Source: Minisyncoccota bacterium
GTDB lineage: Bacteria > Patescibacteriota > Minisyncoccia > Phycocordibacterales > Phycocordibacteraceae
Assembly (NCBI GenBank): GCA_036261925.1
Contig: DATAJW010000013.1
Coordinates: 22,544 to 86,543, forward strand
Length of the DNA: 64,000 nt
Reading direction: 5' to 3'
A program made the translations under genes and the position numbers. Positions 7,924-8,312 of this stretch are shown here, piece by piece. Position 1 is the stretch's first letter, and the number at the start of each line of letters is the position of its first letter. The notes beneath the pieces were generated by a model. It worked only from the letters and a program-made list of their open reading frames with translations. It was not told where the DNA came from and did not search any database.

Positions 7924-8232
7924 ATGGCAAAGACCGAAAAACTCTCTATCGCTCCGCTCGCTGACCGCGTCGTCATCGAGCCTTCCCCTAAGGAAACCGT
8001 GTCCGCATCCGGCATCATAATCCCGGACTCGGCCAGCCGAGAAAAGCCGGAGCAGGGAACCGTAGTCGCAGTCGGCCCCGGCCGCTATGACGACGGCGCC
8101 TTGGTCCCGATGACGCTCAAGTCCGGCGACACCGTCCTCTTCTCCAAGTACGGCTACGACGAGGTGAAGGTCGACGGCACCGACTACCTCATCCTCCCCG
8201 AGTCGAGCGTATTAGCAGTCATTAGCCACTAG
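7924..8232 (+). CDS. groES: Co-chaperonin GroES
   Basis: 102 aa, classic GroES sequence. Confidence 0.95.
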   Translation: MAKTEKLSIAPLADRVVIEPSPKETVSASGIIIPDSASREKPEQGTVVAVGPGRYDDGALVPMTLKSGDTVLFSKYGYDEVKVDGTDYLILPESSVLAVISH

Positions 8233-8312
8233 GCACTGGGCAGTTAGTAGGATTCGAACTTCCCTATTCTTCCCTAACGCCTGATTCCCTAACAAACTAA
8301 TTCCCTATTCCC

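Follow-up and report, generated by a model that had tools for sequence, protein, structure and literature searches.

The stretch of DNA analysed in this study (the window, 64,000 nucleotides) belongs to contig DATAJW010000013.1 of the Minisyncoccota bacterium assembly GCA_036261925.1 (positions 22,544 to 86,543, forward strand), a genome of the Patescibacteria. It has a GC content of 63%, and a rough, GC3-based gene map predicts 54 genes, including groES, groEL, lemA, hsp20, ftsZ and an S1-domain (rpsA-like) gene. The spacers next to these genes hold a family of short repeats, which the original prediction had described as palindromic motifs built on a recurring 10-mer; motifs and sites proved to be present at all the positions it listed. 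About eight sites occur in the 64 kb, all of them extragenic, and five fold significantly. The window was cross-checked against independent Logan assemblies of run SRR12773038. Since these show the same sequence (L001 is 99.98% identical to the window, and the repeat arms in L216 are identical to its arms), the repeats are real and not an assembly artefact. L001 and L216 come from the same organism as the window, so they allow no comparison with a closer relative.

Motif counts were compared with those in dinucleotide shuffles, and no shuffle equalled the observed count for any of four motifs. Seven matches to TAGCCACTAG with at most one mismatch were found where 1.12 were expected (0 of 100 shuffles reached 7), together with three to GGCAGTTAGTAGG with at most two mismatches (0.52 expected), six exact copies of TTAGGGAA (0.41 expected) and nine matches to GTAAGCAGTAGG with at most two mismatches (1.48 expected), the last being spaced at 7-nucleotide (nt) offsets. 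According to the predicted gene map, all copies are extragenic save where a copy provides a stop codon. The proposed enrichment and intergenic location are thus borne out.

What recurs is a series of 7-nt-phased TAG units (TAGTTTT TAGCCAC TAGnnnT TAGnnnnT TAG...) and not a 10-mer: the 10-mer is indeed repeated, but the phasing of the true unit, a TAG heptad, had escaped notice. The pattern TAG-N4-TAG-N4-TAG occurs 10 times in the window against 0.07 expected from gap-wise dinucleotide shuffles (maximum 1; a second shuffle set gave the same result). TAG triples with a period of 8 occur twice and with a period of 9 once; periods 3-6 and 10-12 gave none, and no TAA or TGA triple at period 7 was found in the window. 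TRF reports period 7 with 4.3 copies at 40252-40281, the sole array that it detects. In each arm the 7-nt units keep TAG (mostly YTAG) in phase and vary at the other four positions; neighbouring units in the window differ at all four of them (TAGCCAC, TAGACGT, TAGGGTA...). The lemA end reads TAGTTTT TAGCCAC TAGACGT TAGGGTAT TAGGGA, the Hsp20 end TAGTTTT TAGCCAC TAGGGGT TAGGCAGT TAGTAGG, the site called G below TAGCCAC TAGTCGT TAGGCAGT TAGTCAG, and the sequence after groEL TAAGAAG TAAGCAG TAGG TAG TAGGCAGG. The layout is one in which a TAG-sense, purine-rich 5′ arm faces a complementary CTA-sense, pyrimidine-rich 3′ arm.

Because 7 = 1 mod 3, three heptad units place a stop in every frame. At ftsZ, the SBP_bac_5 gene (SBP), groEL, lemA and hsp20, all three frames are closed no more than 14-17 nt after the stop codon (P 0.003-0.02 each against shuffles), and the groES array leaves closure of all frames to 71 nt. 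Fast three-frame closure follows 5 of the 54 genes in the window, and the median distance is 120 nt, compared with 116 nt in shuffles. A three-frame stop after genes was rejected as a genome-wide rule, since the window-wide closure distance equals shuffle expectation.

We designate the groES-groEL spacer as site A, the array after groEL as site B, and the elements at 29432-29534, 40249-40357 and 48853-48929 as E, F and G. Site A contains a solo TAG-sense arm (8222-8251, plus strand) that reads TTAGCCACTAG-GCACTG-GGCAGTTAGTAGG. The second TAG of this arm (8230-8232) is the groES stop codon, and the C-terminus V-I-S-H-TAG lies on TAGCCACTAG. The right arms of E and G are homologues of this arm; a 29-mer, TTAGCCACTAG-N6-GGCAGTTAGTAGGA, is common to all three, with 25-27 of 29 positions identical to E-right as read by eye (25/29 for A), and the left copies at E and G have one mismatch each. 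Between the arm and the groEL ATG at 8313 runs a pyrimidine-rich leader (8258-8312, plus strand) without a Shine-Dalgarno sequence, in which four TTCCCTA units (reverse complement TAGGGAA) are irregularly spaced. Site B (9945-10003, plus strand) is composed of type-2 heptads that start at the groEL stop, close all frames within 17 nt and pair with ...CTTCCCTGCCTGGCTA as the 5′ strand of a hairpin.

Element E (29432-29534, both strands) is complete and contains no open reading frame (ORF). It lies between a DUF2914 gene (plus strand) and the convergent Hsp20 gene (minus strand), with a TAG arm on each strand around a GC-rich hairpin, GGCCCTGGAAC-TTCG-GTTCCAGGGCC. Both flanking genes stop on heptad TAGs (29432-29434 and 29532-29534), the Hsp20 stop being the TAG of TAGTTTTTAGCCACTAG. 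Element F (40249-40357, minus strand) fills the spacer that separates the stop codon of ftsZ (40355-40357) from the start codon (ATG, 40249-40251) of a pyridine-nucleotide-disulphide oxidoreductase gene; ftsZ and this thioredoxin-reductase-like downstream gene are co-directional (minus strand), so that F spans the interval from stop to next start. It comprises, in order, type-2 heptads (TAAG TAGGCAG TAAGCGG TAGG TAGCATG TAG) that close all frames within 14 nt, a GC hairpin with A and U tracts, and a complementary CTAC-rich arm. Element G (48853-48929, both strands), a miniature ORF-less hairpin upstream of the S1-domain gene (47680-48807, minus strand), is homologous to E in both arms and has no GC hairpin at its tip. 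E measures 103 nt and G 77 nt, with terminal inverted repeats of the form TTAGCCAyTnG...CnAGTGGCTAA.

A further ORF-less heptad hairpin (5640-5706, minus strand), the one site absent from the original list, immediately follows the stop codon of the SBP_bac_5 gene (5704-7413, minus strand). Its sequence, TAG CGAA TAG CACG TAG TAGG ... CCTACTGC, contains a period-7 TAG triple and closes all frames within 17 nt. Two weak sites were also recorded: a minimal, single-unit type-2 copy (TAGGCAGCAGG, 53916-53926, plus strand) that starts at the stop of the gene at 53532-53918 and is followed by a GC hairpin, and a short spacer (TAGCACTTATTCCCTAATCACCATTCCGTC, 56899-56928, plus strand) with one TTCCCTAA unit before the ATG at 56929.

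A gene is enclosed at one site, between lemA and an M48 peptidase gene. The 5′ arm (11139-11173, plus strand) includes the stop codon of lemA (11146-11148) and runs up to the start codon (ATG) of the enclosed gene. The lemA C-terminus V-S-F-TAG falls on the first TAG of the motif; stop codons are therefore embedded in the repeat at both groES and lemA, as had been stated. The 3′ arm (11496-11537, plus strand) is CTA-sense (TTCCCTA ACGTCTA AACCCTA GTGGCTA TACCCTA ATTCAT), overlaps the end of the enclosed ORF and reaches as far as the M48 peptidase start codon (ATG, 11538). Its units are the reverse complements of the 5′ arm units TAGCCAC, TAGACGT and TAGGGAA. The gene between this arm pair (11174-11518, plus strand), which points to the closest known relative of the whole family, had been overlooked. 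It encodes a 114-aa four-helix-bundle protein of family PF05635 / TIGR02436 (S23p, '23S rRNA intervening sequence protein'), with matches in Pfam (9.6e-33), NCBIfam (TIGR02436, 2.4e-31) and PDB (2gsc, 1.2e-19). The protein, like GroES of the window, shows 100% identity to a protein of a Candidatus Paceibacterota MAG (metagenome-assembled genome). The related 2gsc structure is a pentamer from X. campestris, and there is weaker kinship to Avd, an accessory protein of diversity-generating retroelements. The gene lies outside 23S rRNA, flanked by heptad arms, and has a GC content of about 50% against 63% for the window. It is the only ORF found at the eight or so sites, all others being ORF-less.

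The repeats take three forms: cargo-bearing (11139-11537), ORF-less (5640-5706, 29432-29534, 40249-40357, 48853-48929 and, in part, 9945-10003) and solo arm (8222-8251).

Folding and comparison with relatives

Folding energies were compared with those of shuffled sequences. E reaches -44.3 and -47.6 kcal/mol on its two strands (z -5.7 and -4.5), G -30.6 and -33.0 kcal/mol (z -4.8 and -7.1), F on the minus strand -51.8 kcal/mol (z -6.5), and the RNA of 5640-5706 -34.6 kcal/mol (z -6.5). At B, z is -4.3 for a 106-nt stretch (9945-10050) that includes a separate hairpin at 10014-10039. The whole spacer of site A does not fold (z -1.0) and is not palindromic. The description of the repeats as palindromic is thus right for five sites (z -4.3 to -7.1) and wrong for site A. 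They had also been suggested to act as terminator modules, which is plausible. A consensus terminator scan called the canonical, terminator-like hairpin at 10014-10039 beside B, but not the tips of E (29473-29497) and F, under a strict rule (at least 5 T in 8) that weak terminators may escape. Terminator identity of the E and F tips was rejected for lack of a call.

Four relatives (L201-L204), with GroEL 74-78% identical, share with the window the gene order SBP-secG-groES-groEL-lemA-[slot]-M48. No period-7 TAG triple was found in 58 kb of their sequence, versus 10 in the 64-kb window. No TAG arms were found in their groES-groEL, lemA and SBP-RNase J spacers, and no hairpin like that at 5640-5706 in the orthologous SBP spacer of L201 and L203. 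Their groES genes end in ...AVIS-TAG or similar and are array-free. Because the checked orthologous sites are empty in relatives, a REP/MITE-like invasion (repetitive extragenic palindromic sequences; miniature inverted-repeat transposable elements) fits. Together with the 29-mer shared by A, E and G and the arms shared by E and G, these empty sites uphold the earlier view of a dispersed, homologous family of this type; the comparison of orthologous spacers, made here around groESL and from SBP to RNase J, had been proposed as a check.

The groES-groEL spacers of L201-L204 retain CTTCCCT repeats but lack TAG arrays, so the leader of site A predates its TAG arm. Site A is thus a composite of a solo arm and an older CTTCCCT-rich leader. 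More generally, the clade favours CTTCCCT / AGGGAAG. All groES-groEL spacers of the window and of L201-L204 contain repeats of it, CTTCCCTG comes after the groEL stop in each of the five genomes (9987-9995 in the window), and the terminator hairpins downstream of M48 in L201 and L204 (AAAGGGAAGT...ACTTCCCTTT) have the motif as their lower stem.

The slot between lemA and M48 holds a NUDIX gene and a small ORF in L201 and L204, a DUF6159 gene in L202 and nothing in L203, and this variation of cargo by relative gives some support to the idea that the sites are insertion targets. PF05635 occupies the slot in the window, in L087/L123 and in L193, and probably also in L157 and L168. In the more distant Patescibacteria L087/L123 (GroEL about 49% identical) and L193, heptad arms flank the lemA-PF05635-M48 arrangement on both sides. 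The first units at this slot are identical in the window, L087/L123 and L193 (GTTAGTTTTTAGCCAyTAG), and later units share only the TAG phase. The stem formed by the arms around PF05635 has a z of -5.1 in L087 and -4.2 in L193. The family is therefore patchy among relatives, with the TAG phase kept wherever it persists.

PF05635 genes and heptad arrays in other genomes

A scan of 185,579 species genomes with TTAGCCACTAGNNNTTAGN{3,4}TTAG (19 specified bases) returned at least 118 array loci, against about nine chance matches by our own estimate. Among the matches listed, approximately 35 are from Patescibacteria, 40 from Bacteroidota, 15 from Acidobacteriota and nine from Cyanobacteria; a few each come from Planctomycetota, Gemmatimonadota, Chloroflexota and Proteobacteria-labelled metagenome-assembled genomes (MAGs), and one from a Nanoarchaeota MAG. 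With a second pattern, 73 similar loci were recovered from metagenomes. Inverted pairs of TTAG-heptad arrays are thus present in at least seven phyla. The repeats had been called specific to this lineage, which remains true only of the exact window 27-mer (TTAGCCACTAGNNNNTNGGCAGTTAGT, 0 matches in metagenome contigs).

The arrays commonly extend beyond the search pattern by more TTAGNNN units and very often have an inverted partner array. The search left the partner side unconstrained, and among the matches listed 85 inverted pairs are TAG-first and 13 CTA-first, or about 81:4 once overlapping CTAG-palindromic arrays are removed. Among the 344 distinct TAG-sense arrays listed, two lie inside predicted ORFs. 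A same-strand ORF ends within 40 nt upstream of the array or inside it in 139, its stop being exactly the first TAG in 31. In 81 arrays an opposite-strand start codon lies within 40 nt, which places a CTA-sense array just 5′ of that gene, and in 28 a same-strand start lies just downstream. The base before TAG is T in 73% and C in 19% of units, so that 92% also read as a stop (CTAR) on the opposite strand. Degenerate in-phase units (TGG 8, TTG 5, CAG 4, TAA 2) give no support to the idea that any stop will do, numbers too small to decide the matter. In other Patescibacteria the arrays often precede A-tract/hairpin/U-tract terminators. Two Saccharibacteria MAGs (L094, L063) contain runs of TTTAGGG, the plant-type telomere repeat, such as TTAGCCACTAG(GGTTTAG)x4 in L094; arrays of this sort could trigger false 'telomere' or contamination calls in MAG screening.

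In the array loci, every PF05635 gene is bracketed by a TAG arm on one side and a CTA arm on the other, as illustrated by a Gemmatimonadales MAG (L026) with (TAGCCGT)x19 upstream of the gene. PF05635 between arms was also seen at other loci in L195 and L199. Such genes are close to few arrays: a homologue lies within 8 kb at 2 of the 118 genome array loci listed. An obligate physical link between arrays and PF05635 was rejected on this count; the link is one of architecture and cargo.

Genes picked by protein similarity alone (L193, L195, L198, L199 and ten plasmid or chromid examples) have comparable flanks. The ten plasmid and chromid genes (Cyanobacteria, Riemerella, Gemmatirosa, Azospirillum) have short-unit repeat arms, most of them inverted, with unit pairs such as GGCAGAA/CCTTCTG, GGGAAAA/TTTTCCC, GGAGATA/TATCTCC and AAGGTTT/AAACCTT. 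In 40 arms of 20 PF05635 genes, mean identity reaches 0.43 and 0.41 at lags of 7 and 14, versus about 0.27 at other lags; 29 of the 40 arms have their autocorrelation peak at lag 7 or 14, and ORF-internal controls are flat. Purine content is 0.60 upstream and 0.39 downstream (p = 0.002; 15 genes, the window's plus the protein-similarity set). Arm complementarity reaches z <= -2 in 13 of 21 PF05635 loci. The mononucleotide shuffle null is conservative here, because purine-rich and pyrimidine-rich arms pair even when shuffled.

One of these loci, in Azospirillum (L214), is a genuine intervening sequence (IVS) of 23S rRNA: the Rfam large-subunit model is matched at positions 975-1449 (402 bits), with the insert breaking the match, and the heptad arms of the insert (CAGAGGA/CGGATGA units) form a very stable stem (z -7.1). 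In L198 a 30-nt direct repeat around the PF05635 gene is a copy of an arm. PF05635 with repeat arms was also seen inside CRISPR-Cas operons of a Picosynechococcus plasmid (L209) and a Pseudanabaena plasmid (L215), between cas10/cmr2 and cmr3 and between cas6 and cas4, where it looks like an inserted passenger. With respect to the window gene itself, 15 nt (GCATACGGCTCAGGT, five codons, in frame, at about 11403) that are present in L216 and in 119-aa homologues are missing, the rest of the 670 nt compared with L216 being identical; this reflects either variation between strains or a discrepancy between assemblies.

Further features of the window

Among the 54 predicted genes, 31 stop with TAG, 14 with TAA and 9 with TGA, TAG being dominant despite the 63% GC. 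Most genes lack a Shine-Dalgarno sequence and have instead a TAnnnT box (TATACT, TATAAT) 5-20 nt 5′ of the ATG, which suggests that their mRNAs may be leaderless or have very short leaders. Across the whole window, Rfam at gathering thresholds found ten tRNAs and an RNase P RNA alone, with no rRNA and no match at the repeat sites; ARAGORN counted 11 tRNAs. The RNase P RNA (class A, 19550-19996, minus strand) measures 447 nt against a 367-position model and hence carries insertions, and its score of 117 bits is barely over the gathering threshold of 100. Directly 5′ of tRNA-Phe (28260-28333) is a tandem duplication (28077-28246) with an 88-nt unit in 1.9 copies that are 85% identical.

A LAGLIDADG-like ORF (61761-62492, minus strand; PF14528, 4.7e-08) lies beside tRNA-Leu and tRNA-Cys (61708-61781) and overlaps the latter at its end. 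GC content falls to 45-52% over 61.8-62.6 kb around it, and it may be what is left of a homing-endonuclease element. A LAGLIDADG ORF also occurs close to M48 in L203.

A second, unrelated repeat family, AATCTCAACCCT-N12-13-GGGTTAGATT, has three copies in the window (41813-41847 and 47632-47666, minus strand; 53451-53484, plus strand) where none was expected. Each lies shortly 3′ of a gene (41866-43239, the S1-domain gene at 47680-48807 and 50964-53432, respectively). Their outer flanks vary yet remain complementary (cgttc/gaacg, gatgc/gcatc, ctccg/cggag), and for this reason the family may represent a conserved structured RNA; its sites have no Rfam match. Finally, a perfect DnaA-box-like 9-mer (TTATCCACA, 7820-7828, minus strand) lies within a conserved stretch (AAGTTATCCACAGTA) of the divergent secG-groES spacer, just upstream of the secG-like gene in the window and at the same place in L201, L203 and L204.

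Origin and significance of the repeat family

Our preferred reading is that the window motifs are the arms of a recently amplified, IVS-like or MITE-like selfish family of palindromic intergenic elements in Candidatus Paceibacterota (Patescibacteria), to which we assign a probability of roughly 0.5. The anatomy of the elements, their 7-nt phasing, their hairpin potential, the homology of the copies, their absence from relatives, the link to PF05635 and the polarity across phyla were observed directly. Mobility, processing by RNase III and any effect on expression would follow by inference from these features.

Several known systems resemble the family in part. Like other short extragenic imperfect palindromes of many copies (REP and bacterial interspersed mosaic elements or BIME, ERIC, Correia/NEMIS, RUP, BOX and further MITE-like repeats), the window elements would be co-transcribed with flanking genes and give rise to RNA hairpins, and they are absent from orthologous sites of relatives. 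REP/BIME elements are defined by a cognate gene for a Y1 transposase, the REP-associated tyrosine transposase (RAYT), and by a conserved GTAG head. GTAG occurs within type-2 units (GTAGGCAG), the main type is YTAG, and no RAYT was seen in the window. The family also differs from these repeats in having neither a RAYT or other transposase partner nor target-site duplications that we could find, in arms made of 7-nt units with phased stops, and in a candidate full-length relative that carries PF05635 and not a transposase. With bidirectional intrinsic terminators it shares the GC hairpin, a purine-rich 5′ and a pyrimidine-rich 3′ side, symmetry on both strands and a position at gene 3′ ends and between convergent genes (E). 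However, E and F have no qualifying U-tract, G and 5640-5706 no separate GC tip, and A or U tracts are much shorter than the arms.

The closest parallel is with the S23p/PF05635 IVS of Coxiella, Leptospira, Brucella and Azospirillum, in which a PF05635 ORF lies between complementary termini. The IVS of Coxiella burnetii, inserted in helix 45, has an S23p ORF and a 28-bp terminal inverted-repeat stem and is excised by RNase III; 2-3 tandem heptamers (GACAGAT), whose number varies by strain, lie just 5′ of the ORF, and the element was described as selfish by its authors (PMC4990558). Heptamers 5′ of the ORF, also present in Azospirillum (CAGAGGA/CGGATGA in L214), a purine-rich 5′ and a pyrimidine-rich 3′ arm and the patchy distribution expected of a selfish element are common to both systems. 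In contrast, the window elements reside in spacers of protein-coding genes, where the ribosomal IVS interrupt helix 25 or 45 of 23S rRNA; TAG stops are phased in the window units, most copies are ORF-less, and arm complementarity around the window PF05635 gene is weak (z -1.3). The cargo element is thus IVS-like without being a ribosomal IVS. A second parallel is found in the short tandemly repeated repetitive (STRR), long simple sequence repeat (LSSR) and TAACTGA arrays, which are 7-nt direct, intergenic arrays of a single unit (PMC4679880; bioRxiv 10.1101/2022.06.06.494920). They have the same period, often abut start codons, contain stops in their units (two in TAACTGA) and occur in Cyanobacteria and Bacteroidetes. 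Their near-perfect direct arrays of one unit are unlike the degenerate window units, which share only (Y)TAG, form inverted hairpin arms with TAG-first polarity and recur as dispersed composite copies.

A selfish element of this kind would be tolerated at gene ends. The TAG-first, purine-first polarity on both strands would let ribosomes arriving from either side meet stops in all frames before the hairpin, and for this reason insertion at gene ends is plausibly harmless. Elements could even donate the stop codon itself, as at groES, lemA and hsp20. Once transcribed, an element would fold into a long hairpin that might serve as an RNase III processing site, a stabiliser or a terminator-like barrier between neighbours. 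Correia/NEMIS hairpins are RNase III substrates, and by analogy with these and with ribosomal IVS the transcribed hairpin is likely to be an RNase III substrate as well, or else a stabilising or terminating structure.

A number of observations weigh against the selfish-element reading. On reading the flanks of E, G and 5640-5706 no target-site duplication was found, and a profile scan for domains, which covered 19 ORFs of the 64-kb window, detected no transposase, nor was a RAYT or other mobilising gene seen. The empty orthologous sites belong to L201-L204, relatives only 74-78% identical in GroEL. The arm duplex around the window PF05635 gene has -38 kcal/mol compared with -32 kcal/mol in composition-preserving shuffles (z -1.3), and about one-third of PF05635 flanks elsewhere have no significant complementarity. 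Most arrays are ORF-less and far from any PF05635 gene, as the 2 of 118 loci illustrate, and a common origin of ORF-less arrays and PF05635 cassettes is inferred from architecture. In addition, a TAG phase kept at the lemA slot across deep divergence looks like the result of purifying selection, and so of function over pure selfishness.

One alternative is that the repeats arose in place as functional modules, each fusing a frame-independent translational stop, active on both strands, to a hairpin that insulates or terminates between highly expressed neighbours (groES, groEL, hsp20, ftsZ, rpsA, SBP). The rapid closure of all frames after ftsZ, SBP, groEL, lemA and hsp20 is what such a module would provide, and the 92% of YTAG units would add a stop on the opposite strand. 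The conservation of TAG phase in the window, L087 and L193 while other positions differ, the polarity of about 81:4 among the matches listed and the frequent placement of arrays 5′ of terminators in other Patescibacteria point the same way. We nevertheless consider it unlikely. Rapid closure is confined to the five genes and the median is that of shuffles, the groES array leaves frames open for 71 nt, and the E and F tips were not called as terminators. Among degenerate units, TGG, TTG or CAG are commoner than TAA. A purely functional origin in place is further disfavoured by close relatives that are array-free at the same genes and by distant copies nearly identical at non-TAG positions (GGCAGTTAGTAGGA three times), which a need for stops does not explain. 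It is also conceivable, but quite improbable in our judgement, that a nucleic-acid-binding protein acts in trans on translation or RNA stability by binding the heptads, each protomer to one unit, and that the repeats spread because the factor was present. The candidates would be the PF05635 pentamer, a cold-shock protein or S1. PF05635 is related to the accessory protein Avd, which binds nucleic acid. Specific heptads recur with irregular spacing (TTCCCTA four times before groEL), CTA-sense arrays lie directly 5′ of start codons in 81 of the 344 arrays listed, and the window genes mostly lack a Shine-Dalgarno sequence. Moreover, S1, Csp or CsrA was proposed for TAACTGA heptamers upstream of starts (PMC4679880), and a heptamer-binding protein in Nostoc (bioRxiv 10.1101/2022.06.06.494920). 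Yet the unit sequences differ widely within and between genomes, TAG alone being conserved, arrays are absent in close relatives that share the same translation machinery, and binding would require neither inverted pairing nor stable hairpins.

The two remaining explanations invoke familiar sequence classes. The repeats could be ordinary heptanucleotide simple sequence repeats of the LSSR/STRR type, made by slippage in spacers and neither functional nor mobile. Heptanucleotides are the most abundant class of long simple sequence repeats in prokaryotes, with slippage as the proposed cause, according to Mrazek (2007) as cited in PMC4679880. Long perfect arrays exist at L026, L045 and L215, and copy number varies among Coxiella strains (PMC4990558). 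Against this, neighbouring units in the window have none of the four non-TAG bases in common and so are not recent products of slippage, and neither inverted pairs of fixed polarity (81:4) nor the same composite 29-mer at three distant loci would be predicted. We therefore regard slippage as very unlikely. Least credible of all is that the TTAGCCACT...AGTGGCTAA ends are CIRCE-like HrcA operators of heat-shock genes (groES, groEL, hsp20 and the htpX-like M48 gene). The ends do resemble the CIRCE consensus, TTAGCACTC-N9-GAGTGCTAA, and four sites flank genes of heat-shock type. But each half-site is longer by one base, the gap between the halves is 49-369 nt where CIRCE has 9, the location is intergenic or at 3′ ends and not in promoters, the groES site has no second half, and the same heptads occur beside unrelated genes in many phyla. 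This reading was rejected on spacing and position.

If the preferred reading of a selfish palindromic family is extended to other phyla, a bolder proposal can be made, which we hold to be rather unlikely as it stands. PF05635 proteins (Avd-like, pentameric) and inverted heptad arms would together constitute one widespread class of mobile 'intervening-sequence' cassettes, found in rRNA and in spacers of at least seven phyla. They would leave behind miniatures that are propagated or maintained in trans by PF05635 binding one heptad per protomer, and the phased TAGs would be an adaptation to coding neighbours. Heptanucleotide repeats, ribosomal S23p IVS and the heptamers in the Coxiella IVS (one paper) were already known. 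In the searchable literature we did not find inverted TAG-phased heptad arms with fixed polarity, TAG-phased heptad arms in Patescibacteria spacers, or a general rule that PF05635 lies between 7-nt-periodic arms in and outside rRNA. The window family is in itself an ordinary-looking repeat, and it is the regularity across phyla that is of interest.

Genomes of the Candidate Phyla Radiation are tiny and thought to be poor in repeats. A recent invasion of core-gene spacers (groESL, ftsZ, hsp20, rpsA) by palindromic repeats would point to ongoing genome dynamics in this group. At the level of individual genes, phased stops define gene ends, and the elements account for several unusual C-termini and apparent TAG stops. 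Beyond the Patescibacteria, a single architecture of fixed polarity joins the STRR/TAACTGA repeats of Cyanobacteria and Bacteroidetes, the PF05635/S23p family and the IVS of 23S rRNA, and with it the role of S23p proteins and heptamer repeats becomes directly testable.

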